A stretch of DNA of 42,128 bases from Patescibacteria group bacterium (GTDB taxonomy: Bacteria > Patescibacteriota > Microgenomatia > UBA8517), in contig DATEXQ010000062.1 in the NCBI GenBank assembly GCA_035256745.1, positions 1-42,128 on the forward strand, in the 5' to 3' direction. This document shows, one piece after another, positions 2 through 33,293 of the stretch. The notes beneath the pieces were generated by a model, which saw only the letters and a program-made list of their open reading frames with translations, searched no databases and was not told where the DNA came from. The translations under genes were made by a program, and so were the position numbers. Numbering within the stretch: the stretch's first letter is position 1; each line of letters begins with the position of its first letter.

Positions 2-1066
2 AGGATAGACGGAATTTTGCAGGAAAAACTGACTGTACCCAAAGCCCTTCATGAGGCTCTAATTTCCCGTATAAAAATACTGTCCGGAATGAAAATTGAC
101 GAAAAAAGAATACCCCAAGACGGCAGATTTAATTTTAAAGAGTCGGGAGAAGAAGTGGACCTTCGTGTGTCTTCACTTCCAACCACCTGGGGAGAAAAAA
201 TTGTTATGAGGCTTTTGAAAAAAACAGGAGGAGTTCCAGAATTGCCCGAATTGGGTTTAAGAGGTATTGCGCTGAAAAACTTGGGAGATGCAATTCTTAG
301 GCCTCACGGAATAATACTTATCTGTGGACCCACGGGATCGGGAAAGACAACAACCCTTTACTCTATTATTTCCAGAATTAATACTCCCAAAGTAAATATT
401 GTAACTTTGGAAGACCCTATCGAATATAAAATAGCAGGAGTTAATCAGGTTCAAATAAATCCCGGAGCGGGACTGACTTTCGCATCGGGTTTGAGGTCTT
501 TCTTGAGACAGGACCCTAATATTATTCTAGTTGGAGAAATAAGAGACAAAGAAACAACAGATCTGGCAATTCAGGCATCACTAACCGGGCATTTGGTCTT
601 TTCGACTCTTCATACCAATGATGCATCAGGGGCACTACCCAGGCTTCTTGATATGGGAGCAGAACCTTACCTTCTTGCCTCTTCTATGACGGCAATTGTC
701 GCTCAAAGAGTTGTAAGGGAAATCCATGAAAAATGTAAGAAAGCATATACACCCGACCCAAAAGTTATTGAGGATGTGAAGGGCGTCCTTGGCACCCTTT
801 GGCCAAAAGATGGAAAAACCACTCTTTATAAAGGTACAGGAGATGCGGATTGTAATAACACAGGATATTATGGAAGAATCGGTATTTTTGAGGTCTTGCC
901 AGTTACCGAAAAAATTAGTAGGCTAATATTAGAGAGGGCTCCTTCATCAAAAATTGAAAGTCAGGCGAGAGAAGAAGGAATGATTACCTTAAAGCAGGAC
1001 GGATATATGAAGGTTTTGGAAGGAATATCGTCTATTGAAGAAGTTTTAAGAGTTGCCCAAGAGTAA
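2..1066 (+). CDS. pilB: Type IV pilus assembly ATPase, PilB/GspE family, C-terminal part (5' end cut by the window edge)
   Basis: The frame is open to the window start (..RIDGILQEKL). Walker A GPTGSGKTT, LVGEIRD and TGHLVFSTLHTND motifs are present. pilT and pilC follow. Confidence 0.9.
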   Translation, partial: RIDGILQEKLTVPKALHEALISRIKILSGMKIDEKRIPQDGRFNFKESGEEVDLRVSSLPTTWGEKIVMRLLKKTGGVPELPELGLRGIALKNLGDAILRPHGIILICGPTGSGKTTTLYSIISRINTPKVNIVTLEDPIEYKIAGVNQVQINPGAGLTFASGLRSFLRQDPNIILVGEIRDKETTDLAIQASLTGHLVFSTLHTNDASGALPRLLDMGAEPYLLASSMTAIVAQRVVREIHEKCKKAYTPDPKVIEDVKGVLGTLWPKDGKTTLYKGTGDADCNNTGYYGRIGIFEVLPVTEKISRLILERAPSSKIESQAREEGMITLKQDGYMKVLEGISSIEEVLRVAQE

Positions 1067-1082
1067 TATTAATTAAAAAGAT

Positions 1083-2141
1083 ATGGATATAAAAGAGTAT
1101 TTACAACTAACCACGGAGAAGAATGCGTCTGATTTGCATATGGTTGCAGGAACACCTCCTACCTTGAGAATAGACGGAGAGTTGATTCCCATTCCAAATG
1201 AGCCAGTTATTACATCTGATGATATATCCAAAATTCTGCCCGAAATTCTAAATAGTGAGCAGCTAGAGAGACTTACTATTAATAAAGAACTTGATTTTTC
1301 TCTTGCATTTAGCGAAACGGCTCGTTTTAGGATAAATGCCTATACCCAGAAAGGAAGTTTTGCGATTGCATTTAGATTAATTCCCCTGGAAATTCCCTCA
1401 ATTGATGCCCTTAATTTACCCAAAATTCTTCACTCATTTACCAATTTAAGACAGGGTTTTATTTTAATAACTGGTCCCACCGGTCATGGAAAATCAACCA
1501 CATTGGCGTCAATTCTTAACGAGATTAACCAAAGCCGGGCAGAGCACATAGTCACAATTGAAGACCCAATAGAATTTGTCATAAAGCCCAACAAATCCAT
1601 AATTTCCCAAAGAGAAATGGGTTTTGACACCCATTCTTGGCAAATTGCCCTTCGAAGTGTTTTAAGGGAGGATCCCAATGTAGTTCTTATCGGAGAGATG
1701 AGAGATTATGAGACTATTGCCTCGGCATTAACCATTGCGGAAACCGGACATTTGGTTTTTGCGACCCTTCACACCAATTCTGCTGCACAGACAGTCGATA
1801 GAATCGTGGATGTTTTTCCGGAAGAGCAACAAAACCAGGTTAAGCTTCAGCTTTCTAATGTGATTGAAGCGGTTTTTTCAATGCGGCTTGTGCCGTCACT
1901 TTCCGGAAGAAGACTCGTGGGTTATGAAGTAATGCTGGCGTCTTCAGCCATAAAAACTGCCATAAGGGAAGGAAAAACACACCAGATAGATAACATTATC
2001 CAAACTTCACAGGAAGCCGGAATGAGTACACTTGAAATGTCGTTGGCACGGATGGTTAAAGATGGGGCTGTCAGTTTGGAAATAGCGCAAACTTATTGCT
2101 TAAGACCGGAAGAATTAACCCGTTTAGTTAAAGGAAGTTAG
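1083..2141 (+). CDS. pilT: Type IV pilus retraction ATPase PilT
   Basis: About 350 aa. Motifs ASDLHM, Walker A GPTGHGKST, LIGEMRD and TGHLVFATLHTNSA. Sits between pilB and pilC. Confidence 0.88.
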   Translation: MDIKEYLQLTTEKNASDLHMVAGTPPTLRIDGELIPIPNEPVITSDDISKILPEILNSEQLERLTINKELDFSLAFSETARFRINAYTQKGSFAIAFRLIPLEIPSIDALNLPKILHSFTNLRQGFILITGPTGHGKSTTLASILNEINQSRAEHIVTIEDPIEFVIKPNKSIISQREMGFDTHSWQIALRSVLREDPNVVLIGEMRDYETIASALTIAETGHLVFATLHTNSAAQTVDRIVDVFPEEQQNQVKLQLSNVIEAVFSMRLVPSLSGRRLVGYEVMLASSAIKTAIREGKTHQIDNIIQTSQEAGMSTLEMSLARMVKDGAVSLEIAQTYCLRPEELTRLVKGS

Positions 2142-2146
2142 TAAAA

Positions 2147-3352
2147 ATGAAAAGATTTAACTATAAGGCAAAAGATAAGACAGGACAAATAGTTTTAGGA
2201 GAGGTTGAAGCTTCAAACGAAAATCAAGCGGCGAAACTTGTAAGGGAGCGAGGAATGGTTGTAATTACAATTACTCCAAGATCGGAAGGGATTTTTGCGA
2301 TCGTAAGGAAATTGAGAGAAAAAATTTCATTAAAAGATGTATCTACATTTACCAGACAACTTTCAACAATGATAAGTGCAGGACTTCCCATAACAGAGTC
2401 GCTTTTGGTATTAAGAAATCAAAACAAAGGAAGTATGCAAAAAATTATTGCTCAAATGCTTGCCGATGTAGAAGGGGGAGAATCTCTTTCTGCTGCAGCT
2501 GGGAAACACCCTAAAGTTTTTTCTCCTACGTATGTTGCGCTACTTAAATCAGGTGAGGTTGGAGGAGTTATAGATCAGGTTTTGGTAAGACTGGCTGACA
2601 ATTTGGAAAATCAGGAGGAATTTAAAGGTAAAGTAAAAGGAGCTCTTATTTACCCGGTAATAATTGTAGTCGGAATGGTTATAGTCTCCCTTATTATGAT
2701 GATTTTCGTAATTCCCAAACTAATGGCTTTATATAAGGATTTTAATGCCGAACTTCCTCTTCCGACCAAGATCCTTATGGGAGTATCGGATTTTTTCTTT
2801 AAGTTTTGGCCTTTATTTTTAATAATAGGGTTTGCTTTATTTTACGGACTTCAGCTTTATAGAAAAACAATTATTGGGAGAAGAAAAACAGATGAACTTA
2901 TTTTTAAAATTCCTATTATTGGTGAACTGCAAAGGCAAGTGATGCTTACGGAGTTAACCCAAACTTTAAGTTTGATGGTGGGTTCAGGTGTTTCTATTCT
3001 GGAAGGTTTGAATATCTCAGCGGGTATTATGGGTAATGTGGTAATAAGCGATGCTTTAAGACAGGTAGCCAAGGATGTCGAAAAAGGTTTTCCTGTCGCC
3101 TACTCTTTTGCCAAACATCCTGACGCTTTCCCCTACATTCTTTCCCAAATGATAGCCGTTGGTGAAGAAACAGGCAAAATGGACGAGGTTTTGCAAAAAG
3201 TGAGCCATGTTTTTGAAGTCGAAAGCGACCAAAGAGTAAAAGCCCTAACTGCCGCGGTTGAACCTTTAATAATGGTAGTTTTGGGTTTGGGAGTTGGGTT
3301 TTTAGTTATTGCTGTTATTTTACCTATTTATAGTCTTACTAGTCAGTTTTGA
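2147..3352 (+). CDS. pilC: Type IV pilus platform membrane protein PilC/GspF
   Basis: 401 aa with two GspF-like repeats (FTRQLSTMISAGLPI.. and LTQTLSLMVGSGVSI..) separated by TM segments. Locus context supports the call. Confidence 0.88.
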   Translation: MKRFNYKAKDKTGQIVLGEVEASNENQAAKLVRERGMVVITITPRSEGIFAIVRKLREKISLKDVSTFTRQLSTMISAGLPITESLLVLRNQNKGSMQKIIAQMLADVEGGESLSAAAGKHPKVFSPTYVALLKSGEVGGVIDQVLVRLADNLENQEEFKGKVKGALIYPVIIVVGMVIVSLIMMIFVIPKLMALYKDFNAELPLPTKILMGVSDFFFKFWPLFLIIGFALFYGLQLYRKTIIGRRKTDELIFKIPIIGELQRQVMLTELTQTLSLMVGSGVSILEGLNISAGIMGNVVISDALRQVAKDVEKGFPVAYSFAKHPDAFPYILSQMIAVGEETGKMDEVLQKVSHVFEVESDQRVKALTAAVEPLIMVVLGLGVGFLVIAVILPIYSLTSQF

Positions 3353-3357
3353 AAGAC

Positions 3358-3388
3358 TTGACACTTTAATAATGATACATAATAATAA
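3358..3388 (+). promoter_or_regulatory. Candidate sigma70-type promoter for the major pilin gene
   Basis: Exact TTGACA at 3358-3363, with an A/T-rich -10 region (cataataataa) 14-17 nt downstream. A strong SD GAGAGGGGGTG (3392-3402) precedes the ATG at 3413. Confidence 0.5.
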
Positions 3389-3412: not shown

Positions 3413-4051
3413 ATGACTGCTCAAAAATATTTAAAAAGATTGGGAGGTTTCACCCTTGTGGAGCTTTTGATTGTTATAGCAATTTTGGCAATTATCGCCT
3501 TGATTGTTATCGCAGCCATAAATCCTATTGAACAGGCCAACAGAGCCAGGGATACAGGACAAAAGGCTGATGCAAGTCAATTTTTATCCGCAAATGACAG
3601 ATACTTCGCAGCCAAGTCGGAATTCGCTTGGGTGACGGTCGATAATGTAGGGGGAGGAAGTGCGACCAATGATGATGCATTTGGTTATATCACTATTGAT
3701 GATGCAACTGTTGGGCTTTGTGCAACATCTGGAGATTGTGCAAGTGATCCTGGTTTATTAATTACCCAACAGGAATTAAAACCGGAATTTGGAAATAGGA
3801 GATTTGTAGATGCAGCGAACGTCAGTGATAGAATGTTTATGGGAAAAGCGGATCAGGAGCAATCTGTTTATGTCTGCTATATACCGATGGCAAAATCCAA
3901 TAGAGCAAAGGCCTGTGAGGATCAAAAAGTATATACATTAGCTGGTCTTGGTGTAAGAAGCCAAATTGTTTGTGACCCGGCAGCTGAACCTCAATGGGTA
4001 GGAGCAAATCTGGACGGGACGGATTCTTATTTCGTCTGTGTTCCTGAGTAG
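3413..4051 (+). CDS. pilA: Type IV pilin, candidate major subunit
   Basis: Class III signal KRLGG|FTLVELLIVIAIL with Glu at +5. It has its own promoter-like signal, the strongest SD in the locus and a 3' stem-loop. It lies between pilC and pilD. Confidence 0.8.
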   Translation: MTAQKYLKRLGGFTLVELLIVIAILAIIALIVIAAINPIEQANRARDTGQKADASQFLSANDRYFAAKSEFAWVTVDNVGGGSATNDDAFGYITIDDATVGLCATSGDCASDPGLLITQQELKPEFGNRRFVDAANVSDRMFMGKADQEQSVYVCYIPMAKSNRAKACEDQKVYTLAGLGVRSQIVCDPAAEPQWVGANLDGTDSYFVCVPE

Positions 4052-4189: not shown

Positions 4190-5011
4190 ATGAATAATGA
4201 TATTAGGTTTATGTTTGAATATTTCGCCGTAATTGTTTTTGGACTTATAATCGGCTCGTTTTTAACCGCATTGAGCTTTAGAATTCCCAAAAAAATATCA
4301 ATTGCAAAAGGAAGATCCTTTTGCGATATATGCAAGAAGAAAATAGCCTGGTATGATAACATTCCCCTTCTTTCTTACCTTTTGTTAAAAGGAAAATGCA
4401 GAAATTGTCATAAAAAAATATCCCTTCGCTATCCTTTAATAGAACTATCTACTACATTAACTTTCCTTGTGATTTATATTATTTATACCTTGTATATCAC
4501 TTCCTTTATAGATAGTGTTTTTTATGCTTGGGGAAATGCTTTGGGAGTAATTACCCTCCCCTACTTTATTTTTATTTCGATAATTTTGATTACAATTTTT
4601 ATAATTGATTTAGAAAAAGGAATAATTCCTGATAATTTGATATTCATTCTTTATTTAACTGTAAGTATTTTTCTTGTACTTACCCATATGGAGAATTTTT
4701 ATCTTCATTTTTTTGCAGGTATGCTATCTTCTCTATTATTATATTTTCTTTTTTTCATAACCAAGGGGAGAGGTATGGGTTTGGGAGACGTAAAACTGGC
4801 AATTCCTTTGGGGACCATTCTTGGCCTTACAATTTCTTTGGTGTGGATATTTTTGGCTTTCTTGACAGGGGCATACATTGGAATCATACTGATTTTAATA
4901 AAAAGGGCTAAATTAAAGGATAAATTAGCCTTTGGACCTTTTCTGATTTTTGCTTTTTTTGCAGCCCTTATTTGGGGTAATAGAATTCTAGTCAATTTGA
5001 ATATTTTTTAA
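4190..5011 (+). CDS. pilD: Prepilin peptidase / N-methyltransferase (peptidase A24)
   Basis: CDIC..(x21)..CRNC zinc motif, polytopic membrane protein, and two Asp motifs (IIDLEKGIIPD and GMGLGDVKL). Confidence 0.9.
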   Translation: MNNDIRFMFEYFAVIVFGLIIGSFLTALSFRIPKKISIAKGRSFCDICKKKIAWYDNIPLLSYLLLKGKCRNCHKKISLRYPLIELSTTLTFLVIYIIYTLYITSFIDSVFYAWGNALGVITLPYFIFISIILITIFIIDLEKGIIPDNLIFILYLTVSIFLVLTHMENFYLHFFAGMLSSLLLYFLFFITKGRGMGLGDVKLAIPLGTILGLTISLVWIFLAFLTGAYIGIILILIKRAKLKDKLAFGPFLIFAFFAALIWGNRILVNLNIF

Positions 5012-5026
5012 AAAGCTTTTTAATTT

Positions 5027-5710
5027 ATGGGAATAAAAAAAAGTACAGCTTTAGCTGGTCATCATCTAAAATTTGTAGATAGTACTTCGGGATTAACATT
5101 AATTGAAGTTCTTATAGTTACCGCAATAATCATATTAATGCTCATTCTTTCTTTTACGGTTTTTCGTAAACAATTAGCTAAAGGAAATGATGCGAAAAGG
5201 AAATCCGACATTTATCATATAAAACAAGCAGTGGAAGAATATGAGAAAGATCATGATTGCTATCCTGTTTCCCCTTTACCTGCCTGTGAACCTGGAGAAG
5301 GACTGCAACCCTATTTGGATAAAATTCCCTGCGATCCGGTTACAAAAGATGACTATATTTATTATCCAGATCCCGATCATAATATTTGCCCGCAATGGTA
5401 TTGGATATTTTCCACACTTGATTATAAATACGACCCCCAAATCGATGATCTGGGTTGTCTTTTAGGTTGTGGGCCTAGCCAAGACGAGTTGAATTATAAT
5501 TATTACCAAACTAGTCCAAATGCGCCGGAACCCTACAAGGGAGAAGGAACACCTACAGAACCTCCTAGTCCTACACCAGTTCAAAAATATGGCTGCTTTA
5601 ACAGAATCTGTCTACCAATTCTAACCAGCCCTATATGCCATCCAAACTATATTCCAAGTGATTGTAATAATGAGTGTGCTGGGGGAGCAAATGAGTGCGA
5701 AGATATATGA
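5027..5710 (+). CDS. Modular type IV pilin-like protein with a Pro-rich linker and a C-terminal 6-Cys module
   Basis: Prepilin motif DSTSG|LTLIEVLIV. Linker SPNAPEPYKGEGTPTEPPSPTPV. The tail is C-x4-C-x8-C-x9-C-x3-C-x6-C. Confidence 0.75.
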   Translation: MGIKKSTALAGHHLKFVDSTSGLTLIEVLIVTAIIILMLILSFTVFRKQLAKGNDAKRKSDIYHIKQAVEEYEKDHDCYPVSPLPACEPGEGLQPYLDKIPCDPVTKDDYIYYPDPDHNICPQWYWIFSTLDYKYDPQIDDLGCLLGCGPSQDELNYNYYQTSPNAPEPYKGEGTPTEPPSPTPVQKYGCFNRICLPILTSPICHPNYIPSDCNNECAGGANECEDI

Positions 5711-5719
5711 AAGTGAATA

Positions 5720-6292
5720 ATGTCCGAGAAATTTACACTTAAAGGAAAGCATGTTGCATCAATATTTATAATCTTACTCATTATTGTTTTGGCAAATTTT
5801 ATAAATTTTAGAATCTCCGAGAGGAAGGCAAGAGATAACCAGAGAAACTTAGACGTTTCGGCAATCGCCCAAGGGCTTGAAAGTTATAAAGCAGATTATG
5901 GATTATATCCGTTAAGCTCATCTGAAGGTAAAATAATTGCCTGTAAAGGTCCTGATACCAGACGGGAAAATCCTTTTGAAATTCCCAAAAACAAAAAACC
6001 CAAGCTTATTAATTTAATTCCTTGTGAGTGGGGAAAAGATTCTCTAATGGATGTAACCGACATAAATTACCCCCACTACTTAAGTCTAATTCCAAAAGAT
6101 CCCGAGGAAAGTATGGGAGCAAGCTATAGATATATATCCGATGGAATAAGTTACCAAATATTGGGAGCTTTCGAAGGAAAAGATTTAATTGAATACAACA
6201 AGGCAATTTTAAGACGAAATGTTGGGTGTGGAATAAGAATTTGCAATTTCGGTAAGGCAAGTTTGAATACGTCTCTTGATAAATCACCGTAA
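5720..6292 (+). CDS. Degenerate pilin-like protein with the prepilin cleavage motif lost
   Basis: The globular part is paralogous to 6325..6867 (ERKARDNQRNLD.., IPCEWG, IPKDP, YQILGAFEG). The N-terminus reads EK-FTLKG instead of G-FTLxE. Confidence 0.6.
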   Translation: MSEKFTLKGKHVASIFIILLIIVLANFINFRISERKARDNQRNLDVSAIAQGLESYKADYGLYPLSSSEGKIIACKGPDTRRENPFEIPKNKKPKLINLIPCEWGKDSLMDVTDINYPHYLSLIPKDPEESMGASYRYISDGISYQILGAFEGKDLIEYNKAILRRNVGCGIRICNFGKASLNTSLDKSP

Positions 6293-6324: not shown

Positions 6325-6867
6325 ATGGTTAAAGGTAAATTGAAAATGATTGGAGCCTTTACTCTGGTTGAGATTTTGATTGTTATTGCAATCATTGCAA
6401 TTCTTGCTGTAATTTCTCTTTCTGCTTTTAGATTCACACAGGCAAGAAGCAGGGATTCACAAAGAAAATCAGACTTAAAAGAAATTTCTCATGCTTTGGA
6501 GATATTTTATTCCGATCATAAGATTTACCCCGCAGGAAATGGATCAGGTGAGATATTGGCCTGTCCCTTTGCTAGTGTAAATCCAACAAACTGTGCTTGG
6601 GGTGAAGGTCAGATGACTGATAATCAAACAACATATTTTAGAATAATTCCGAGTGATCCTCTCAACAGCCAAAACTACTATTATAGGACTTTAGCTGACC
6701 AGCAAGCTTATCAGCTTTATGCTCATTTGGAAAATAAAGAGGACAAAAATTGTATAAAGGATGATTCGGGAGTACCCGATTGCGAAATAAACATGGGCAT
6801 TGACTGTGGAGGAAATTGTAACTTTGCTATAACTAGTGCAAATGTTGCACCAACCGATTCTGATTGA
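6325..6867 (+). CDS. Type IV pilin / GspG-like pseudopilin
   Basis: KMIGAFTLVEILIVIAII, then ARSRDSQRKSDLKEISHALEIFY..YP and the IPSDP motif. Confidence 0.8.
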   Translation: MVKGKLKMIGAFTLVEILIVIAIIAILAVISLSAFRFTQARSRDSQRKSDLKEISHALEIFYSDHKIYPAGNGSGEILACPFASVNPTNCAWGEGQMTDNQTTYFRIIPSDPLNSQNYYYRTLADQQAYQLYAHLENKEDKNCIKDDSGVPDCEINMGIDCGGNCNFAITSANVAPTDSD

Positions 6868-6907: not shown

Positions 6908-7396
6908 ATGGGAACAAAAATTAAAGAAATCAGGTCTCAAATTCAAAATTCCGGATTCACTTTAATTGAGCTTTTGGTTGTGATATCAATAATTGCAATT
7001 CTGGCGACTCTTCTTATCGCAAATATGAATGCCATCCGAGGTAGGGCAAGAGATGCCGCAAGGAAATCTGATTTAAGAAATATTCAAACTGCCTTAAGAC
7101 TTTATTACAATGACTATGGTATGTATCCGGGTGACTACGAGTATAAAATAAACGGTTGTGGAATTGGAGGATTGAGAACTTGTGAATGGGGAGGATCTTT
7201 TGCATCAGATAAAAATACATATATGAGTATTTTACCCGCTGACCCTTCTCCTGATAGGTCTTATACATATGACCGTAATAATACAGCAAATGACCTCTAT
7301 ACTCTTAGCGCATGCCTTGAAAACGTAAGCGATGATAGGTGTGCAGGAGTCTGTAGCGGTGGCATAGATGGATGCACATATCTTGTACAACCATAA
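6908..7396 (+). CDS. Type IV pilin / GspG-like pseudopilin
   Basis: NSG|FTLIELLVVISIIAIL, then RARDAARKSDLRNIQTALRLYY..YP and LPADP. Confidence 0.82.
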   Translation: MGTKIKEIRSQIQNSGFTLIELLVVISIIAILATLLIANMNAIRGRARDAARKSDLRNIQTALRLYYNDYGMYPGDYEYKINGCGIGGLRTCEWGGSFASDKNTYMSILPADPSPDRSYTYDRNNTANDLYTLSACLENVSDDRCAGVCSGGIDGCTYLVQP

Positions 7397-7426
7397 AAAT
7401 TATTTTAATATAAATATAGATAGAAT

Positions 7427-8122
7427 ATGAAAAAAATATATGAAAGTTTAGGTTTTACCCTCATTGAGATTTTGATTGTGATTGCAATAATTGGAATTCT
7501 TGCTGCAATTGCTCTGGTTTCTTTCACGGGAGCACAAAGACAGGCAAGGGATACCAATAGAAAATCTGATTTAAGAATGTATGAAACCGCTCTTGTTCAG
7601 TATGCAAGTAAGAATAAAGGGAAATTTCCTTCTTACTCTGGAGTGACAAATATTTCTAATCTTTGCGGTACTCTTGATATTTCAAATTGCCCCACAGATA
7701 TTGATGATACATATAGGTATGTATCTAACGGACCTACAAACGATGGAACACCCAAGGCAACGCAATATGTTATATGGTCTACCCTGGAAGCAACTAATGA
7801 TGTTAATGACGCTTGGGTTATTTGTTCAGGTGGAAGTGTTGGAACGTATTATGATACTCCAAATAGTTTTAATTGTCCTCCTCTGAACGAACCTGAACCT
7901 CTGCCTACAGCTACACAACCTCCGGCAGAAACTAATCCGCCTACGGGTACTACAGGTACTGCCACACCTCTGCCTACAGCTTCATTTATACCTACATCTA
8001 CACCAACAATAGGACCCCTACCTACATGTATACCGGGTGGACGTCCATGCGGAGCTGGTAGTGTAGAAGCGTGTTGTCCAGGTTATGAGTGTATCGCTGG
8101 AAGATGTGTAAGCTCACTATAA
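7427..8122 (+). CDS. Modular type IV pilin with a P/T-rich linker and a C-terminal C-C-CC-C-C mini-domain
   Basis: ESLG|FTLIEILIVIAIIGIL and QARDTNRKSDL. A linker of about 50 aa is rich in P and T. The tail is C-IPGGRP-C-GAGSVEA-CC-PGYE-C-IAGR-C-VSSL. Confidence 0.82.
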   Translation: MKKIYESLGFTLIEILIVIAIIGILAAIALVSFTGAQRQARDTNRKSDLRMYETALVQYASKNKGKFPSYSGVTNISNLCGTLDISNCPTDIDDTYRYVSNGPTNDGTPKATQYVIWSTLEATNDVNDAWVICSGGSVGTYYDTPNSFNCPPLNEPEPLPTATQPPAETNPPTGTTGTATPLPTASFIPTSTPTIGPLPTCIPGGRPCGAGSVEACCPGYECIAGRCVSSL

Positions 8123-8137
8123 TTAGATTAAATTAAT

Positions 8138-8737
8138 ATGAAGGATAAATATAACAAAGGTTTTACATTAATCGAGCTTTTGGTTGTCATTGCAATAATT
8201 GGCATTTTAGCGGGAATATCGTTTTTTGGAATTCAGGGAGTTTTTGAAAATTCCAGAGACACACAACGAAAGTCCGATATAAAGCAATACCAAACAGCTT
8301 TGGAAAGTTATGCCAATAAAAATAATGGTTTTTATAAAGGACGACCCAATACAGAAAGAGCCTCTTCTATTCTTTGTGGAGATCTAGGCTTAAGTAATTG
8401 TCCAGAGGATCCTAATTATGATCCAATAACAGGAACTCCGACTTATAATTTTCAAACAGATGGTACAGCAGGTGTAAACAACGCAACAAAGTATGTTATT
8501 TGGGCAATTCTTGAAGATCCTGTATCACCTACTACTTTTTCGGTGGTTTGTTCAAATGGAGCTGTGGGAACCATTAGTTCAAGGACTATTTCTGGAGGTG
8601 TTTGTCCTTTAACAAGTAGTAATTGTGCAGGACCTGGAGAAGCTTGTGGACCTGCCGGTGGAGGCATAGATTGTTGTTCGGGAACGTGTATGGGTGATAT
8701 CTGTTCAGCAGAAGCAGGGGGAGCAGAAACAGATTAA
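8138..8737 (+). CDS. Modular type IV pilin, paralog of 7427..8122, with a C-terminal C-C-CC-C-C mini-domain
   Basis: NKG|FTLIELLVVIAIIGIL and SRDTQRKSDI. The core is paralogous to the previous gene. The tail is C-AGPGEA-C-GPAGGGID-CC-SGT-C-MGDI-C. Confidence 0.82.
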   Translation: MKDKYNKGFTLIELLVVIAIIGILAGISFFGIQGVFENSRDTQRKSDIKQYQTALESYANKNNGFYKGRPNTERASSILCGDLGLSNCPEDPNYDPITGTPTYNFQTDGTAGVNNATKYVIWAILEDPVSPTTFSVVCSNGAVGTISSRTISGGVCPLTSSNCAGPGEACGPAGGGIDCCSGTCMGDICSAEAGGAETD

Positions 8738-8775: not shown

Positions 8776-9246
8776 ATGAAAATGCATGTGAATAAAAAAC
8801 TATTTTATAAACGGGGATTTACCTTAATTGAGCTATTAATTGTGATTGCAATAATCGGAATTATACTTGCCATTAGTGCTTTTGGTTTGACTGGAGCAAG
8901 AGAATCTTCCAGGGATGCCAAAAGAAAGGCTGATTTGGAAACAATTAGAGGCGGTCTTGAATTATACAAATCTGACTGCAACTCATATCCTGCAACCCTT
9001 CCCTCCCCGGGAAATCCCCTTATAGGAACAAGTGGTACTGGAGCATGTTTAACAACCAATAAATATATAGAAGCAATGCCGGGTGACCCCATAACAGGAA
9101 GTCGTTTGTATGCTTATCTTCCCTCAGGATCTCCCAGCTCATCATATACTTTATGTGCTGCACTGGAAGGGACAACAATTGCTGTAACTGGATGTGGTAG
9201 TTGTGGTTTTAATATGACTTGTTCTTATAAAGTTACAAATCCGTGA
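8776..9246 (+). CDS. Type IV pilin / GspG-like pseudopilin
   Basis: KRG|FTLIELLIVIAIIGI, then SSRDAKRKADLETIRGGLELY..YP and MPGDP. Confidence 0.82.
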   Translation: MKMHVNKKLFYKRGFTLIELLIVIAIIGIILAISAFGLTGARESSRDAKRKADLETIRGGLELYKSDCNSYPATLPSPGNPLIGTSGTGACLTTNKYIEAMPGDPITGSRLYAYLPSGSPSSSYTLCAALEGTTIAVTGCGSCGFNMTCSYKVTNP

Positions 9247-9261
9247 TATGAATCATATAAA

Positions 9262-9786
9262 ATGTTTTCTTTACTTAAAAATCTTAAATCCAATAAAAAA
9301 ACTTCACAAAGATTCATTAAAGGCTTCAGTTTAGTAGAAGTCATTCTGGTGGTAGCAATTATCGCTTCCCTATTTGCAGTAGGCTATGCCAATTTTCGCG
9401 GATACCAAAGAAGACAATCCATTATGGCTGCAGCTCGCCAGGTAGAAGGAGATATTAGGCTTGCTGAAGAATATGCATCGTCGGGGAAAAAACCTACCGG
9501 TTGCACACTTCTTAACGGTTATATATTTCAGGTTAATTCTAGCCCTGTAGACACTTACGATATAATAGCTGATTGTCCTACGGATGTGGTAGTAAAAAAT
9601 GATATAGCAATTTCTTCGGGAATGACTTTAACCCCATCCTCAAGTATGATGTTTAAAGTATTGGGGTTGGGAACCGATATTCCTTCTGACAATCCAAAAA
9701 CGATAATAGTTACCCAAACTGAAACTCAGGAAAAAGTTGATATCGTAATAACATATAGTGGTGTGATAACCGTTGATTTTGAATAA
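9262..9786 (+). CDS. Minor pilin, GspH/FimT-like
   Basis: FIKG|FSLVEVILVVAII followed by a GspH-like region. It is the first gene of a four-gene minor-pilin block. Confidence 0.65.
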   Translation: MFSLLKNLKSNKKTSQRFIKGFSLVEVILVVAIIASLFAVGYANFRGYQRRQSIMAAARQVEGDIRLAEEYASSGKKPTGCTLLNGYIFQVNSSPVDTYDIIADCPTDVVVKNDIAISSGMTLTPSSSMMFKVLGLGTDIPSDNPKTIIVTQTETQEKVDIVITYSGVITVDFE

Positions 9787-9802
9787 TAATAATAATAATA
9801 AT
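9782..9802 (+). repeat. (AAT)7 microsatellite giving six in-frame TAA stops that run into the next ATG
   Basis: aataataataataataataat. The TAA at 9784-9786 ends the upstream ORF, and the last unit supplies the AT of the ATG at 9801. Confidence 0.95.
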
Positions 9803-10268
9803 GAAAAGAAACAGTCTCATTAAAGGGCAGTCAATGTTTGAGGTGGTGTTTGCTTTAGGTATTATTGCCCTTATTACCGTTGCGATAGTAAGTGTTTCTA
9901 CTGTAGCTATAAGAAATAATATTTCGGCCAAAAATAAATCTTTATCGGGCAAATATCTAAACGAGATGAATGAATGGTTAAGGAATGAAAGGGATAAAAG
10001 TTTCCCAACCTTTTATGCACACGGATCTAATGTAGGAAATAAATACTGTATTGATGAAATTAATGGTGGTTGGTCGGGGGCTCATCCTGGCAGTTGTGGC
10101 CCTTCTGATTACATTCCAAATACAACTTTTCTTCGTGGATTTACCCTTACCACTTTTACCTATGCCAATTCGCAAAAAGCTGTTTCTGCCAGTGCATATG
10201 TACAATGGAATGATGCTCAAGGTTTTCATGAAGCGAGAAGTGTAACAGTATATACCGATTGGGAGTAA
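9801..10268 (+). CDS. Minor pilin, PilV/GspI-like
   Basis: LIKG|QSMFEVVFALGIIALI (Glu at +5), small size and position in the minor-pilin block. Confidence 0.6.
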   Translation: MKRNSLIKGQSMFEVVFALGIIALITVAIVSVSTVAIRNNISAKNKSLSGKYLNEMNEWLRNERDKSFPTFYAHGSNVGNKYCIDEINGGWSGAHPGSCGPSDYIPNTTFLRGFTLTTFTYANSQKAVSASAYVQWNDAQGFHEARSVTVYTDWE

Positions 10269-10272
10269 ATAC

Positions 10273-10803
10273 ATGAGAAAGCATAATTTTATTAAAATAG
10301 GTGGATATACTCTAGTAGAAGTTATGATGGCAATAGGCGTTTTTGCCTTACTAGCCGTTTTGGTCACCCAAACTTTGGCAATTACGTTAAGGAGTGCTAA
10401 AAAAAGTGATTCGGATAGTAGAGTGAGAGCAACCCTCGATTATGCGATATCTATTATGGAAAGACAGTTGAGAAACGCTAACTCCATAACTTCACTATGC
10501 GAGCAAGGTGGAACTACTTTGTCAACAATTTCCTATGTCGATGCTTATGGGGTTCCTGCAAGTTTTAGATGTGTTAACGGTAGCGGAGAAGATGATATTT
10601 ATGTTGCATCAGATTCAGCTACATTATCTTCTAGATTGACCACGCCAGGAATTATAATTTTACCCTGTTCGTTTACATGTACAAGTGACAATAAAACACC
10701 AGACTCGATAGATATTAGTTTAACTGGAACGGAAACCAAAGCAACCGGAGTTGAATCATCGAGGGTTTCGGTTCAAACAAAAATTATGCTTAGGAATTAT
10801 TGA
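10273..10803 (+). CDS. Minor pilin, PilW/GspJ-like
   Basis: KIGG|YTLVEVMMAIGVFALL, followed by the helical segment DYAISIMERQLRNA. Confidence 0.6.
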   Translation: MRKHNFIKIGGYTLVEVMMAIGVFALLAVLVTQTLAITLRSAKKSDSDSRVRATLDYAISIMERQLRNANSITSLCEQGGTTLSTISYVDAYGVPASFRCVNGSGEDDIYVASDSATLSSRLTTPGIIILPCSFTCTSDNKTPDSIDISLTGTETKATGVESSRVSVQTKIMLRNY

Positions 10804-10845: not shown

Positions 10846-11757
10846 ATGAAAATATCACCTGCTCAAGTTATTAAGGAAAGAATAGAATCTGGCCAGGCAC
10901 TTCTGATTGTTCTTCTGGGAATGGCAGTTGTTTTGACTCTGGTTCTTTCGATTGTTTCTAGGTCGGTAACAGATGTTTCAATAACCAAGAAAGATGAAGA
11001 TTCTTTGAGAGCTTTTTCTGCAGCCGAAGCAGGAATTGAACAAATGTTGGTGGGAGGTCCGACGACATCCGAATTCCCCGAAAGCAATAGTAGCTTTACA
11101 GGGAGTGTAACCGACATTGGAGGACAGAATTATTATAATATGGTAAATAATTATGCCTCGGGTGAGGTAGGATTAGTCTGGTTTGTTTCTCATGATACGA
11201 ACGGTAATATTAAATGTGACGGACAAAACCCCTGTATTAATCCGTCGGGTAAATCCCTTAATATGTGTTGGGGTACAAATCTTGGTAGCACACCTGCTAT
11301 TGAGATATCCCTTTTTTATGATACGACACGAAAAGCTTTAACTTCTGATTTTTCTGATGTTAAAATAGCCAGAGCTACTTTTGATTCTAATGCAAGTAGA
11401 CGAAACGAAAACTTTTTTGGACAAGCCTCTGAAACTAATTGTACTTTTACGATTGGACCAACCTACCGCTTTACCAGCGGTTATAAAAGCTTCTTAACAG
11501 ATTTAGGGCTACCAGCTGGATGTAATCAAGAGGGATGCTTACTATTTGCCAGAATCAAAATATTCTATAATTCTGCCCCCGACGGTATAGGGGTAGCCTT
11601 AGATTCTGGTACTTTTCCCGCTCAAGCTATAAAAGTAACATCGTCCGGTTTTTCCGGTGAGGCAACAAGAAAAGTTGAAGCAATACAAACCTTTGACGAA
11701 TTCTTACAAATATTTGACAATGCTGTTTTTAGCAATAGTGGTGATCTTTCAAAATAA
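10846..11757 (+). CDS. Large minor pilin, PilX/GspK-like (no Glu at +5)
   Basis: IESG|QALLIVLLGMAVVLTL then AFSAAEAGIEQ, as in PilX N-terminal domains. It is the largest protein and the last gene of the minor-pilin block, and its stop overlaps the pilM start (TAATG). Confidence 0.55.
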   Translation: MKISPAQVIKERIESGQALLIVLLGMAVVLTLVLSIVSRSVTDVSITKKDEDSLRAFSAAEAGIEQMLVGGPTTSEFPESNSSFTGSVTDIGGQNYYNMVNNYASGEVGLVWFVSHDTNGNIKCDGQNPCINPSGKSLNMCWGTNLGSTPAIEISLFYDTTRKALTSDFSDVKIARATFDSNASRRNENFFGQASETNCTFTIGPTYRFTSGYKSFLTDLGLPAGCNQEGCLLFARIKIFYNSAPDGIGVALDSGTFPAQAIKVTSSGFSGEATRKVEAIQTFDEFLQIFDNAVFSNSGDLSK

Positions 11758-12764
11758 TGAGTGTAGGAATAGATATAGGGTCAAAAAGTATAAAAATAGT
11801 GGAACTTGAAAAACAAGGTTCAAGCTGGGCTATACGAGGTTCCGGGATAGTGGGTTATTCGGGAACGCCTGCAGAGCACATAAAGGATGAAAAGGAGATG
11901 GAATCACTGGGTCAGGTAATAAAAAATCTTCATAAAGAAGCCAGAATTTCTGATAAAGTAGTTTCAATAGCCCTTCCAGAACCACAAGTTTTTACCCGCA
12001 CCATAAAATTCCCTCTTTTAACAGACCAAGAAATTGCTAGTGCTGTCAAATGGGAAGCAGAACAATATATTCCAATACCTTTATCCGAAGCAATTGTAGA
12101 GCATCAAATAATAGAAAGAAAAGAAACCACTACCCCACCAGAAGTAGTAGTTCTTTTAGTGGCGGTTCCCCAGACTCTTGTTGAAAAATATTTGAAAATT
12201 CTTCAATTTGCCGGACTTTCAGTTAATTCTGTAGAAACAGAGATGACTTCTCTGGTGAGATGTCTTGCACCTGAAGGTCAAACAGTACTATTGGTAGATT
12301 TTGGAGCGGGGTCAACAGATATTGCTATTGCTAAGAATGCAAATTTGGTTTTTTCGCGTTCGATTCCGACCGCTGGAGATGCTTTCACTCGTGCTGTTGC
12401 TCAAAACCTGGGAATTGAGTATGCACGAGCTGAGGAATACAAAAAGACTTACGGATTGACAGCAAACCTGGAAGGTAAAATTAAAGGAGCTCTTGATCCG
12501 GTTATAAGAATGGTTACCGATGAGATTAAAAAAGCAATTCATTTTTATCAAACCGAAGAAAAGGAAGAGTCTCCCAGGTCGGTAATTATCTCAGGTGGAA
12601 CATCGGGTATGCCCGAAGTAACCTCTGTTCTTACCAAAGCGTTAAATTTAGAGGTTATTATGGGTAATTCATTCTCCAAAATTTCTTTGGATAGTAAAGT
12701 TGCCCAAAGTTTGGCCAACTATGGTCCATTATATTCAATAGCCGTTGGTTTGGCGATGAGATAG
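11757..12764 (+). CDS. pilM: Type IV pilus assembly protein PilM (actin-like ATPase fold)
   Basis: MSVGIDIGSKSIKIV and DFGAGSTDI phosphate-binding motifs. pilN follows. Confidence 0.85.
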   Translation: MSVGIDIGSKSIKIVELEKQGSSWAIRGSGIVGYSGTPAEHIKDEKEMESLGQVIKNLHKEARISDKVVSIALPEPQVFTRTIKFPLLTDQEIASAVKWEAEQYIPIPLSEAIVEHQIIERKETTTPPEVVVLLVAVPQTLVEKYLKILQFAGLSVNSVETEMTSLVRCLAPEGQTVLLVDFGAGSTDIAIAKNANLVFSRSIPTAGDAFTRAVAQNLGIEYARAEEYKKTYGLTANLEGKIKGALDPVIRMVTDEIKKAIHFYQTEEKEESPRSVIISGGTSGMPEVTSVLTKALNLEVIMGNSFSKISLDSKVAQSLANYGPLYSIAVGLAMR

Positions 12765-12782: not shown

Positions 12783-13313
12783 ATGCCTAAAAATATAAAT
12801 CTGATACCCAAAGAGTCGATTCCCAAAGAATCAACATTAAAAATCGTAAATAGCTTAAGGATGATAGATACAATCGGGACATTAATATTTTTTATAGGGG
12901 TCTTTTTCATAATCTCTCTAATAATTATTAATTCGGAAGAACTGAGACTATCCAATGTTAGGCAAGATAAGTTGAAATTATCTATAAGAGGTTTAGAAAA
13001 AGAGGAACAGCAATACGTTTTACTTAAAGACAGAGCCGATAAAATTCAAAAGATATTATCCTCATATGGGGCAATCAAAGATATGGAACATTTTAATACA
13101 TTAAAAAATAAAATACCGTCAGATGTTTCTATAACTCAATTATCAGTAGTCAGAGGTTCTACTGAAACAATGATTGCAGCCAGTTCCTATTCGTCCCTGG
13201 CTCAAACCCTTGCTGCTCTCCTATCCTCAAATTTATATAAAGGAATTATTTTAAACTCTTTTACCTTTAATATTAAATCGGGATATATAATATCTCTAAA
13301 ATTAACAACTTAA
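12783..13313 (+). CDS. pilN: Type IV pilus assembly protein PilN
   Basis: N-terminal INLIP (the conserved PilN INLLP motif that binds PilM), a single TM segment and a coiled-coil region. Confidence 0.7.
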   Translation: MPKNINLIPKESIPKESTLKIVNSLRMIDTIGTLIFFIGVFFIISLIIINSEELRLSNVRQDKLKLSIRGLEKEEQQYVLLKDRADKIQKILSSYGAIKDMEHFNTLKNKIPSDVSITQLSVVRGSTETMIAASSYSSLAQTLAALLSSNLYKGIILNSFTFNIKSGYIISLKLTT

Positions 13314-13316
13314 AAT

Positions 13317-14006
13317 ATGAAAGTAAATATTGGATTAAATAAAAATAAATCTATGGGTAAAATAACCCTTTTAGTAGTTCCCTTTTTGTATTTTTTTATA
13401 CTTTTATTAATTTCATATTTCGTAGGAAAAACCGGATACGCAAAAATTAAAAGTCAAAGAAAGGATGTAATAAGTGCTAAAAAGACAGAAAATATCTTAG
13501 TAGAAAAGGAAGCAGAGTTAAAAACTATTAAAGAAATATCTAATTATATTAAACCCGTATCTATTGCTCTTCCTGACAAAAATCCGGCACTTATTTTAAT
13601 TTCGCAGATAAAATATCTGTCTAACTTGAATGATTTGAATCTTGAAGATTTTAAAATCGGAAGTATGGCCGGAGACGAAGCTAATTCAAAGCTTAATCTC
13701 TCCTTCAGTTTAAGTGGAAGTTACCTGAATGTATTCTCTTTTTTGACAGGTACTAAAACATTATTACCTATTCTAACGTTACAAAAGGCAGAATTTGGCT
13801 TTCAGGAAGATATGGCCTCAGCTGAAATTATATTGAATTCTTTTTGGGCACCTTATCCAGAAAAACTTCCGCCGGTAACGGAACCGATTCTTAAACTTAC
13901 TGATGATAATATAAATACTTTGGGTCGAGTTTCTGTATTTACCCCACCAGTTTTTTCTACCCTTAATCCCTCTGGACCCATTCAAAGAGCAAATCCCTTC
14001 TTTTAA
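13317..14006 (+). CDS. pilO: PilO-like pilus assembly protein
   Basis: One TM segment plus a coiled coil, directly after pilN. The call is positional rather than motif-based. Confidence 0.5.
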   Translation: MKVNIGLNKNKSMGKITLLVVPFLYFFILLLISYFVGKTGYAKIKSQRKDVISAKKTENILVEKEAELKTIKEISNYIKPVSIALPDKNPALILISQIKYLSNLNDLNLEDFKIGSMAGDEANSKLNLSFSLSGSYLNVFSFLTGTKTLLPILTLQKAEFGFQEDMASAEIILNSFWAPYPEKLPPVTEPILKLTDDNINTLGRVSVFTPPVFSTLNPSGPIQRANPFF

Positions 14007-18200: not shown

Positions 18201-19358
18201 TTATTTGACCTTTACGAATATCTTTTTACCCACTTTAATTCTATCACCGGATTTTATTATTTGTGTAGGGTTATTAATCGTTTGGTCATTAATTTTAACA
18301 GCACCATCTTTAATTAACCTTTTTGCCTTTGATGTCGAAGCGATTTCTTCTAATTGTGCAATTGTTTGGCTTATTGTTTGAAGGTTTTTTACTTCATTTG
18401 AAAAAGCGGGTTCTTTTTGTTGAAATGTTTTACTGAAATTATTTTCTGCATCTTTGGCTATATTTCCCCCCCAGAGAATTTTTACGATTTCAAATGCCAG
18501 TTTTTTCTTTTCTCCCATAGGATCTTTTTGAATTTTTTCATCCAATCCTTCTAGAGACTCTTCAGTTAATAGTTCGAATCCTAGTTTTATAGTGACATCG
18601 GGGAAAGACATTATTCCTGCGTAAAATAGATCGGGTGTGGAATCAAGAAAAAGAGCGTTTCCTGATGTCTTTCCAACTTTTTCTCCCTTGCTGTCGACCA
18701 AAAGTTTGGTTGCCAATACGAATTTTTCTTTATTTTTAATTGCTTTCATTAAGGTTCTTCCGGTAAGCATATTAAATATCTGATCGCTTCCCCCAATTTC
18801 TAAATCTACGTTCATTTCAACACAGTCAACTGCTTGGGCAACAGGATATAAAAATTCGTGCAGGTGTATTGGTTTATTTTCTTTTAGACGCTTTTGAAAC
18901 ATATCACGCTCAAGCATTTGTTGAACTGTAAAATTTGAAGTAATTTCAATTAAATCCTTGAAAGTTATTTTATCGTTCCATTTGCTGTTAAATTCAAAGT
19001 GTGCGGGATTTTTACCCTCAAAATCAATAACCTTACCCGCCTGTTCTTTCCATAATTTTGCATTGTGCAAAACATCCCCCCTGTTTAATTTTTTTCTGGT
19101 TGCGAGTTTATCGGTAGGATCTCCTATCATGCCTGTAAAATCCCCTACCAGGAAAATTACTTCATGACCCAATTTTTGGAATTGCCTTAATTTCATCAAA
19201 CCCACAAAGTTACCCAAATGAAGGCTTGACATTGAAGGATCGAAACCTTGATACAATTTTATTTTTTTCTTTGCCATTAAGGATGCCAGACCTTCTTTTG
19301 AAGGATAAATCTTTTCTATACCTCTTGATAAAACCTGGTCGATATCTATATTTGCCAT
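18201..19358 (-). CDS. tyrS: Tyrosine--tRNA ligase
   Basis: HIGH-type HLGN, TyrRS KFGKT-type KVGKTSG, and a C-terminal S4-like domain (RLIKDGAVKINDQ). Confidence 0.9.
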   Translation of the reverse strand: MANIDIDQVLSRGIEKIYPSKEGLASLMAKKKIKLYQGFDPSMSSLHLGNFVGLMKLRQFQKLGHEVIFLVGDFTGMIGDPTDKLATRKKLNRGDVLHNAKLWKEQAGKVIDFEGKNPAHFEFNSKWNDKITFKDLIEITSNFTVQQMLERDMFQKRLKENKPIHLHEFLYPVAQAVDCVEMNVDLEIGGSDQIFNMLTGRTLMKAIKNKEKFVLATKLLVDSKGEKVGKTSGNALFLDSTPDLFYAGIMSFPDVTIKLGFELLTEESLEGLDEKIQKDPMGEKKKLAFEIVKILWGGNIAKDAENNFSKTFQQKEPAFSNEVKNLQTISQTIAQLEEIASTSKAKRLIKDGAVKINDQTINNPTQIIKSGDRIKVGKKIFVKVK

Positions 19359-21296: not shown

Positions 21297-21325
21297 TTGA
21301 CAATTTATTGCTTCTGCAAGAGAAT
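21297..21325 (+). promoter_or_regulatory. Candidate trpS promoter
   Basis: TTGACA at 21297-21302, a 17-nt spacer, then GAGAAT at 21320-21325, about 17 nt before the ATG at 21342. Confidence 0.35.
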
Positions 21326-21341
21326 CAAAGATGTAACTTAT

Positions 21342-32672: not shown

Positions 32673-33293
32673 TTAACCTGCGTTTCTGGTAAGGTAGTGG
32701 TCGGGAGAAAGAAGAAATTTACCCCCGTGTTTTTTATACCTGGCCCAATAATTTTTCTTTTCGGCTCTTTTGTTTGTAGCTTGAAGCCAGATTGCTCCAT
32801 CTTCAATTTTTTTCCTGAAAGATTTTAAAAATTCCAAAAGTTTTTCAAAAAATATCAAATGATAGACACCGGGTTCAATAGGAGCCTGTAAACTGGCAAT
32901 TTGAAGTTCTTGTCCTAAATCCTGCGTAGTTTCTGCCAAAGTCTGAACTTCCTCCATAATAGCGTGAAGCTGAAGTTTTAATTCATTACTCTTTTTCTCA
33001 AACCTTTCACTTTCTTCAGCCCTTAACTTTCTCTCTAAGGCGAGTTGTTTTTGAACTTTTTGTTTTTCTTCTCTTTGTCCGGAATACACATCATTTATTT
33101 CCAGTGCTTCCCCGGGATTTATTTCACCCGAAAACTTCTCCATTTTGGGAGGACCAAAAAATTGCTCCATAAAATCATTCGGTCTTAGAACATCTGATTT
33201 AAGACCGTTTATTGTTCCTCCCCCGATATCTTTAAGAGATTCTATTACGTTTTGTCTAACTATATTTTTTTGTCTTTTGCTATTTTTGTCCAT
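32673..33293 (-). CDS. Hypothetical coiled-coil protein
   Basis: 206 aa with a central charged heptad-like region (QKQLALERKLRAEESERFEKK..) and a basic C-terminus. I recognise no enzymatic motif. Confidence 0.55.
   Translation of the reverse strand: MDKNSKRQKNIVRQNVIESLKDIGGGTINGLKSDVLRPNDFMEQFFGPPKMEKFSGEINPGEALEINDVYSGQREEKQKVQKQLALERKLRAEESERFEKKSNELKLQLHAIMEEVQTLAETTQDLGQELQIASLQAPIEPGVYHLIFFEKLLEFLKSFRKKIEDGAIWLQATNKRAEKKNYWARYKKHGGKFLLSPDHYLTRNAG

Follow-up and report, generated by a model that had tools for sequence, protein, structure and literature searches.

Modular pilins present adhesive modules on type IV pili (T4P) (PMC8179133). In Streptococcus sanguinis, for example, the modular pilin PilB carries a vWA module and PilC a lectin module (Raynaud et al. 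2021, PMC8179133; PMC9934059), and 264 such architectures have now been catalogued, many of them in the Candidate Phyla Radiation (CPR) and including the combination pilin-IPR003305 (PMC8179133). T4P are also the leading candidates for host recognition by ultrasmall, host-dependent Patescibacteria; in Saccharibacteria they play a part in binding to the host, and lectin-like proteins are found among their minor pilins (PMC11623550). Knottins, small peptides tied by disulfides, are exceptionally stable, and the KNOTTIN database lists predicted bacterial members, none of which has an experimental structure (PMC5753296). Here we describe two tandem genes, pil1 and pil2, found in a 42,128-nucleotide stretch of Patescibacteria DNA (contig DATEXQ010000062.1 of assembly GCA_035256745.1, hereafter the window), each encoding a type IV prepilin that ends in a knottin-like mini-domain with six cysteines. 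The modular type IV pilin as such is already known and catalogued in the CPR; a knottin-like mini-domain on a pilin is the new part. On balance we lean, if narrowly, towards a reading in which pil1 and pil2 are modular pilins that would display a binding module resembling the inhibitor cystine knot (ICK) peptides, possibly towards a host.

Architecture and conservation of the two tailed pilins

The two genes and the parts of their products are:

7427..8122 (+), pil1, a modular type IV prepilin of 231 aa made up of leader, pilin module, Pro/Thr linker and tail
7427..7453 (+), pil1 class III leader MKKIYESLG, with cleavage before FTLIE (Glu5), read from the sequence
7454..7876 (+), pil1 pilin module, residues 10-150; homologues of 140-170 aa end with the pilin module
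7877..8026 (+), pil1 linker, residues 151-200, 50 aa, 56% Pro+Thr
8027..8107 (+), pil1 knottin-like mini-domain CIPGGRPCGAGSVEACCPGYECIAGRC, 27 residues, then VSSL and the stop codon to 8122
8138..8737 (+), pil2, a paralogous prepilin of 199 aa, with next to no spacer between pilin module and tail
8138..8161 (+), pil2 class III leader MKDKYNKG, then FTLIE, read from the sequence
8162..8608 (+), pil2 pilin module, with ...GGVCP at its end as is usual in the family (80-homologue consensus)
8609..8623 (+), pil2 connector LTSSN, five residues, read from the sequence
8624..8704 (+), pil2 knottin-like mini-domain CAGPGEACGPAGGGIDCCSGTCMGDIC, 27 residues, then the acidic SAEAGGAETD at 8705..8734

Both proteins, which are identical to the database entries HJX46152.1 (pil1) and HJX46153.1 (pil2), are type IV prepilins: each has a class III signal, and the pilus machinery and a prepilin peptidase are encoded alongside. 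The G|FTLIE signals claimed in an earlier reading of the DNA letters (the sequence-only reading) are present in both open reading frames (ORFs), which pass the threshold for the N_methyl family PF07963 (25.6 bits for pil1 and 40.1 bits for pil2, against a cut-off of 21.2), and the paralogy that it saw between the two pilin cores stands, at 44% identity. The pil1 core has cysteines at residues 80, 88, 133 and 150; among 80 homologues the four core cysteines are invariant or nearly so and the consensus terminates GGxCPx. Since the core cysteines of the family are conserved in this way, it can be argued that these organisms are able to form disulfides outside the cytoplasm. An AlphaFold2 (AF2) model of full-length pil2 has a mean pLDDT (predicted local distance difference test score) of 83.3, with a helix at residues 11-61 and four strands at about 90, that is, the long N-terminal helix on a beta-sheet head that defines the pilin fold. 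The nearest solved folds to this model in a Foldseek search are PilV, ComP and PilX; these matches are weak (best E = 0.027) and carry no information on how the tail packs. Beyond the pilin module there is a linker with a tail in pil1 and a tail in pil2, so that each protein has the extra module that distinguishes a modular pilin; the pil1 tail also folds by itself in an AF2 model.

The tail cysteines of pil1 lie at residues 201, 208, 216, 217, 222 and 227 (C-x6-C-x7-CC-x4-C-x4-C) and those of pil2 at residues 163, 170, 179, 180, 184 and 189 (C-x6-C-x8-CC-x3-C-x4-C). Both C-C-CC-C-C tails, the ORF coordinates and the Pro/Thr spacer of about 50 aa in pil1 are as described in the sequence-only reading. 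Across all six frames of the window, the strict framework C-x6-C-x6-8-CC-x3-4-C-x4-8-C has two matches only, the tails of pil1 and pil2. In 200,000 shuffles of each protein that retained its ten cysteines, the framework arose 0 times for pil1 and 2 times for pil2, and chance is excluded as its origin. The reading frame through linker and tail recurs in three independent assemblies (L005, L006 and L007). The length of the pil1 linker differs among strains, the L007 copy (2150..2866) having a 7-aa insertion of a TATPLPT-type repeat and a 2-aa deletion; in L006 a scaffold gap (a run of N at about 540..560) falls in the same region. As both the L007 indels and the L006 gap are located there, the linker is a repeat-prone and assembly-prone stretch.

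The pilin family to which pil1 and pil2 belong is very large (7,435 proteins at E <= 0.001 in a profile search) and nearly all of its members are 140-190 aa in length and terminate at GGxCPL with no tail. The knottin-like tail is confined to one small clade, comprising the near-identical strains L005 and L006, the more diverged strain L007, the protein P0002/P0213 from Candidatus Woesebacteria RBG_16_36_11, and P0003. Four diverged tails align at 31-61% identity with six cysteines and three glycines invariant; the P0002/P0213 and P0003 tails are 41-61% identical to that of pil1, and the pil2 tail is in register with the pil1-type tails at all nine of these positions. Between pil1 and P0002 the tail (61% identical) is conserved about as well as the whole protein (67%), the linker not being conserved. 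In the L007 strain, P0212 has one extra residue in loop 2 together with loop substitutions and P0216 has three loop substitutions, every cysteine being retained; the six-cysteine framework is thus kept in P0002, P0003, P0212 and P0216 alike. The sequence-only reading had made its case depend on whether orthologous pilins keep the cysteine spacing, and the tail-bearing ones (P0212, P0002/P0213 and P0003) do. Codon comparison between L007 and the window gives 1.5 synonymous and 5.5 non-synonymous substitutions for the pil1 tail and 0 and 3 for the pil2 tail, too few to be informative.

Tail-bearing orthologues hold the same slot in syntenic pilin rows. In L088, a fully syntenic 61-kb Woesebacteria contig, the pil1 orthologue has the tail, whilst the pil2 orthologue (2523..3002, 159 aa) ends ...GCPLP and lacks it; the pil2 tail would therefore have been either gained in the lineage of the window or lost in that of L088. 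A further L088 paralogue (1982..2482, 166 aa) also stops at ...CPL(P) with no tail. Beyond this clade, a pilin-alignment scan of 80 sampled loci from GTDB species-representative genomes found no further tail-bearing pilin, its matches being mostly distant pilins aligned over the N-terminal helix only, many of them from Verrucomicrobiota and Planctomycetota. Across all retrieved loci, which contain 118 pilin-like ORFs, knottin tails occur only in those found earlier, and a degenerate DNA pattern for CIPGGxPC...CCxG, run against JGI metagenome contigs, returned only L088 and one chance match inside a high-GC gene.

Fold class of the tails

The sequence neighbours of the tails point to the knottin fold class. 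A profile built from the four tails retrieved 40 matches from all PDB sequences and all 40 are knottins, the best being the beetle antifungal peptide Alo-3 (PDB 1q3j, E = 0.0011), cyriotoxin-1a (E = 0.004) and ADO1 (E = 0.005), with atracotoxins, conotoxins and plant amylase and trypsin inhibitors also among them. Searched singly, the pil1 tail gave sub-threshold PDB matches only, all of them to ICK toxins. Against 1.84 billion representative proteins, the four-tail profile found 14 at E < 1e-3, every one a tandem array of C-x6-C-...-CC-xG-x-C-...-C units with Pro/Thr linkers between them. Several of these tandem-array relatives exceed the Pfam thresholds of Toxin_12, Toxin_35 or Atracotoxin, that for Toxin_12 (PF07740) being passed only by the transitive relatives P0217, P0229, P0228 and P0225. 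Eight of the array proteins (P0217, P0219, P0227, P0229, P0224, P0225, P0226 and P0228) have 3-7 tandem ICK-like units; largely unannotated, these poly-knottins resemble the bacterial secreted cysteine-rich repeat proteins (SCREPs). One tandem-array relative is fungal (Lyophyllum atratum), whilst P0219 and P0227 are probably bacterial since they have twin-arginine-like leaders.

Modelling gives a similar picture. The AF2 model of the 33-residue pil1 tail, made from the four-sequence alignment, is compact (mean pLDDT 83.9), and DSSP assigns strands at E25-I27 and R30-V32 that form a hairpin holding Cys V (C26) and Cys VI (C31). Foldseek matched this model to 43 PDB entries, 30 of which are knottin-type peptides (U5-scytotoxin, ProTx-I, huwentoxin-X, covalitoxin and aptotoxin VII included), with template modelling (TM) scores of 0.55-0.70 normalised to both chains and root-mean-square deviations (RMSD) of 1.4-2 Å over about 30 columns. 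An hhalign comparison of pil2-type with pil1-type tails gave P = 1.3e-4 and a probability of 54%. On the strength of the profiles and models, the pil1-type tail is very probably an ICK-like mini-domain with three disulfides, for which the connectivity I-IV, II-V, III-VI would be expected, the low RMSD to solved ICK peptides speaking for it indirectly; that of pil2, with weaker support, is probably the same domain in diverged form. Separately, identity with CBM1 or hevein was considered and rejected, there being no Pfam match to either even at E <= 10 and no conserved aromatics shared by the tails.

A number of results weigh against this reading or against the role that we propose below. No single tail reaches any curated knottin or toxin family in Pfam (best E = 0.06, about 14 bits): Toxin_7 (PF05980) scores 14.0 bits (E = 0.061) against a cut-off of 27, Conotoxin (PF02950) 14.7 bits (E = 0.061, pil2 tail) against 25.1, and Omega-toxin (PF06357) 9.4 bits (E = 1.2) against 22. 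The pil2 tail alone has no PDB sequence match, and in the full-length model it reaches a pLDDT of 64-70 only, with a hairpin at 182-185/188-191. AF2 may largely follow the cysteine pattern, the tail alignment comprising four sequences. Every Foldseek E-value is above 0.1 (best knottin 0.34), as expected for 33 residues, and the top match is the N-domain of IGFBP rather than a knottin. The tails have no ligand-binding signature in common, the aromatics of P0002 and P0003 being missing from pil2. No Dsb or VKOR gene was found among the other ORFs of the window (42 kb), and the distribution of the tail is very narrow. Finally, P0001, a protein derived from SRR4030042 that is 98% identical to pil1, has CC changed to CG, which removes Cys IV. 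P0001 differs from pil1 at four positions, three being changes to Pro and the fourth this one, and since three assembled contigs retain CC the change is probably a read error, although no other sequence departs from the framework.

Taken against these results, the knottin reading put forward from the letters stands as far as the framework, loop lengths, PDB profile matches and modelled hairpin are concerned and falls short in that no curated toxin family is reached; the tails, as judged by sequence, resemble the knottin fold class but are not members of the conotoxin or spider toxin families. Two of the checks proposed with it bear on the fold. Structure prediction returned a compact fold whose nearest solved structures are overwhelmingly ICK peptides; in the search of knottin and toxin families the tail profile retrieves knottins exclusively from the PDB, at a best E of 0.0011, and the tails stay below the Pfam thresholds.

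Two other views of the tail bear on this evidence directly. Because an IGFBP N-domain heads the Foldseek list, a disulfide ladder of the IGFBP-N or Dickkopf kind, in place of a knot, keeps a small share of the probability. Such sub-domains make up most of the non-knottin matches, with TM scores of 0.24-0.38 when normalised to the target; they match over part of themselves, however, whereas the ICK peptides match end to end. It is also conceivable that the tail does not fold at all, being a Cys- and Gly-rich low-complexity extension or an artefact of annotation or assembly. The composition of the tails (rich in Gly, Ala and Pro), their narrow distribution and the read-derived variant with one cysteine fewer would fit such an extension, but the shuffle test, the recurrence of the tail in four assemblies, the invariance of its cysteines and glycines across diverged orthologues, the confident AF2 model and the knottin-specific profile have already largely refuted this view, and we consider it exceedingly improbable.

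The pilus operon and other modules on sister pilins

A complete operon for a type IV pilus, with PilB/T/C/D, minor pilins and PilM/O, surrounds pil1 and pil2 in this Patescibacteria metagenome-assembled genome, and the closest named relatives are Candidatus Woesebacteria. The other genes of the operon are:

17..1066 (+), PilB-like ATPase (PF00437)
1083..2141 (+), PilT-like retraction ATPase (PF00437)
2147..3352 (+), PilC platform protein (PF00482, 207 bits)
3413..4051 (+), stand-alone pilin of 212 aa between pilC and pilD (PF07963)
4190..5011 (+), prepilin peptidase PilD (PF06750 and PF01478)
5027..5710 (+), third modular pilin-like ORF, with a Pro/Thr linker and a different six-cysteine tail (ORF and cysteine reading)
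5720..6292, 6325..6867 and 6908..7396 (+), GspG-like pilins in a tightly packed row (Pfam scan)
8776..9246, 9262..9786, 9801..10268 and 10273..10803 (+), further pilins or minor pilins (Pfam scan)
10846..11757 (+), PilX_N-like protein (Pfam scan)
11757..12764 (+), PilM (PF11104, 165 bits)
12783..13313 (+), ORF in the PilN position, from its place in the gene row
13317..14006 (+), PilO (PF04350, 26 bits)

The two ATPases score 377 bits (PilB-like) and 140 bits (PilT-like) against PF00437. Seven GspG-like pilins, pil1 and pil2 among them, form the tight row, their matches to PF08334 being weak, and beyond it lie four more minor-pilin-like ORFs, one of them PilX_N-like. In a scan for the sigma-70-like consensus, the best promoter-like site of the pilus locus is TTGACA-17-AATAAT at 3358..3386, which agrees at 11 of 12 positions and stands upstream of the lone pilin at 3413..4051; that pilin has a counterpart in L088 at 7233..7847. 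As the strongest promoter-like site of the locus precedes it, 3413..4051 may be the major subunit, in which case pil1 and pil2 would be of low abundance, although evidence of this kind, a match to a consensus, is weak.

The operon also bears on the possibility that the class III signal and helix serve for export only, holding pil1 and pil2 in the membrane or in a short pseudopilus as cell-surface anchors. Archaeal bindosome proteins, which carry class III signals, are the obvious parallel. The weakness of the PF08334 matches across the seven pilins of the row would agree with anchoring, as would the want of a promoter-like site before pil1 and pil2 to match the quality of that before 3413..4051. 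We nonetheless think it quite improbable, given that the genes sit within a full pilus operon, which also encodes the retraction ATPase PilT and an array of minor pilins, and that both proteins retain Glu5 and the complete assembly helix.

Outside the pilus operon the window holds housekeeping genes. Two class I tRNA-synthetase genes of the W/Y family (PF00579), at 18201..19358 (-) and 21297..22364 (+), bracket a RelA/SpoT-like gene at 19400..21241; the S4 domain is found only in the former, which is therefore TyrRS-like, the latter presumably being TrpRS. A PBP1-type transglycosylase/transpeptidase (22388..24997) has a Big_7 domain at its C-terminus; 32673..33293 (-) encodes a DUF5660 protein, and 34542..34880 (-) a protein of the 'phage holin superfamily IV' (PF04020) with four transmembrane segments.

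Other members of the pilin family carry different modules where pil1 and pil2 carry theirs. In the sister pilins P0021 and P0030, a comparable Pro/Thr linker leads to a CBM_4_9 domain (PF02018) that scores 33 and 36.8 bits, the cut-off being 25.9. This module we take to be the CenC/CBM_4_9 entry IPR003305. In P0035 an apparent truncated remnant of CBM_4_9 is seen, with only the last residues kept (...GPGGNAWFDDLSLQ), and P0203 has a different tail with 8 cysteines. The tail of the third modular ORF of the window, 5027..5710, lies at 5594..5698 and reads C-x4-C-x8-C-x8-C-x3-C-x6-C and includes a conserved ...CHPNY... motif. No Pfam family matches this tail, and its six cysteines are retained in the L088 orthologue (5539..6228) despite many changes in the loops, and also in L007. 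Its sequence suggests another cysteine-rich mini-module on a pilin, unrelated to the knottin-like one. The P0002/P0213 protein (L001 519..1328; L088 2995..3804) has an extra module with 10 cysteines in the linker ahead of its knottin-like tail (LVCGSECDPDIWIPQCPTGLSCLPVGMLAIYSCQNASCPGDSDCICD), again with no Pfam match. A 'CLP' motif is common to this module, the 5027 tail and the 8-cysteine tail of P0203. With most family members ending at GGxCPL, L088 lacking the tail on its pil2 orthologue, and others having CBM_4_9 or another Cys-rich tail in its place, the C-terminal module proves to be an accessory part that can be exchanged on a conserved pilin carrier.

This interchangeability helps in weighing two further accounts of what the tail does. 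The first gives it a structural role only: a disulfide-rich cap that stabilises pilin or filament (by protease resistance, bundling or marking of the tip alone) and has no external ligand. Only five residues separate the pil2 module from the pilin head, a third pilin of the row has a Cys-rich tail of its own, and the exceptional stability of knottins (PMC5753296) would suit a cap. Nevertheless, the 50-residue tether of pil1 and the extra module of P0002 are ill suited to a cap that packs on the pilin, most of the family, including the L088 pil2 orthologue, assembles with no tail, and other members bear CBM_4_9, a ligand-binding domain, instead. We regard a purely structural tail as unlikely.

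The second account makes the tail a toxin or inhibitor effector, a knottin that blocks or perturbs a host membrane protein, such as a channel or transporter, or acts antimicrobially, either tethered or after release by cleavage within the Pro/Thr linker. Every neighbour in sequence or structure is a toxin, an antimicrobial knottin or an inhibitor, with the antifungal Alo-3 the best match among PDB sequences, and CPR bacteria can be parasites of their hosts. The bias towards toxins mirrors which members of the fold have been solved, however, and no toxin family threshold is reached. The tails are moreover poor in the basic and hydrophobic patches of channel blockers, that of pil2 being acidic and having no aromatic residue, and the presence of CBM_4_9, a carbohydrate-binding module, in the same position on sister pilins favours binding over killing. 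A toxin or inhibitor is in our view decidedly unlikely.

Proposed role and comparison with known systems

The role that we favour for pil1 and pil2, display of an ICK-like binding module on the pilus, would work as follows. PilD would cleave the class III leaders, and the hydrophobic N-terminal helices would place the two proteins, probably as minor rather than major pilins, in a pilus built by the PilB, PilC and PilM-O proteins of the same operon. The C-termini of pilins lie on the outer face of the filament, and here the outward C-terminus would bear a three-disulfide mini-domain of knottin type and about 3 kDa. In pil1 the module would sit on a flexible 50-residue Pro/Thr tether, with a reach of up to about 15 nm if fully extended, and in pil2 directly on the pilin head, near the shaft. 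Most likely it would then act as a small adhesin-like unit, resistant to proteases and shear, that binds a surface molecule of a host or partner, probably a glycan or a surface protein, after which retraction driven by PilT would draw the cell onto its target. A bolder variant, in which a bacterial knottin at the tip or along the shaft turns the pilus into a harpoon and blocks or opens a host channel or transporter, or inhibits a surface enzyme, strikes us as very improbable; if true, a toxin-type ICK would for the first time be seen to be delivered by a type IV pilus, and the fold would gain a tractable bacterial example, with a bearing on its origin.

At 27-33 residues the tail is a candidate recognition module that can be chemically synthesised, and so a potential probe with which to seek what an uncultivated, Woesebacteria-like lineage binds on its host. 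It adds a fold of which no bacterial example has been solved experimentally (PMC5753296), and it suggests a natural design, the multivalent display of a knottin on a retractable filament, that may interest protein engineers.

Among the closest described systems are the modular pilins of S. sanguinis and the CPR, a concept that the sequence-only reading named and that is well founded (PMC8179133). Like the S. sanguinis proteins, pil1 and pil2 open with a pilin module that bears a class III signal and carry a C-terminal module attached through a linker, and are encoded in a pilus operon; adhesion, unlike there, is proposed here by analogy. The module here is about ten times smaller (27 residues with three disulfides) and has no database signature. 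A module of this kind is therefore missed by surveys that depend on signatures, as are mini-domains in modular-pilin catalogues generally. The same reading had been aware of no knottin module on a pilin; we likewise found none in the literature searched or in the architecture catalogue, in which none of the knottin or toxin identifiers looked for occurs (PMC8179133).

In common with the T4P of the Saccharibacteria strain TM7x (Grossman et al. 2024, PMC11623550), the locus belongs to Patescibacteria and would put accessory binding modules on minor pilins, if pil1 and pil2 are indeed minor pilins. The lineage is another one, however, and the TM7x modules are large and lectin-like, in contrast to the mini-domain seen here; homology to the TM7x pilins is not claimed.

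A looser parallel is provided by fungal CBM1, a cellulose-binding wedge of about 35 residues that is stabilised by disulfides and ends a Pro/Thr/Ser tether. Here too a small disulfide-stabilised module stands at the end of a Pro/Thr-rich tether, but CBM1 lacks the CC pair and the tails lack the conserved strip of aromatics.

As for the ICK peptides themselves (spider Toxin_12 and Toxin_7, the omega-conotoxins of framework VI/VII and Alo-3), the likeness comprises the C-C-CC-C-C order, loops within the ICK range, the CCxG motif, a modelled C-terminal hairpin with Cys V and Cys VI and Foldseek superpositions on ProTx-I, huwentoxin-X and covalitoxin at an RMSD of about 1.5 Å. The tail differs from them in being bacterial and covalently fused to a pilin, whereas the toxins are free secreted peptides cut from a propeptide, and in having loops rich in Gly, Ala and Pro that lack the basic and hydrophobic pharmacophores of ICK toxins and stay below all curated family thresholds. 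With the predicted bacterial knottins (PMC5753296) and the SCREPs (PMC6262176) the likeness is in the module itself, the tail profile retrieving it from tandem arrays with Pro/Thr linkers. Those proteins are multi-copy arrays on ordinary secreted proteins; in pil1 and pil2 the module is present in a single copy, on a pilin.

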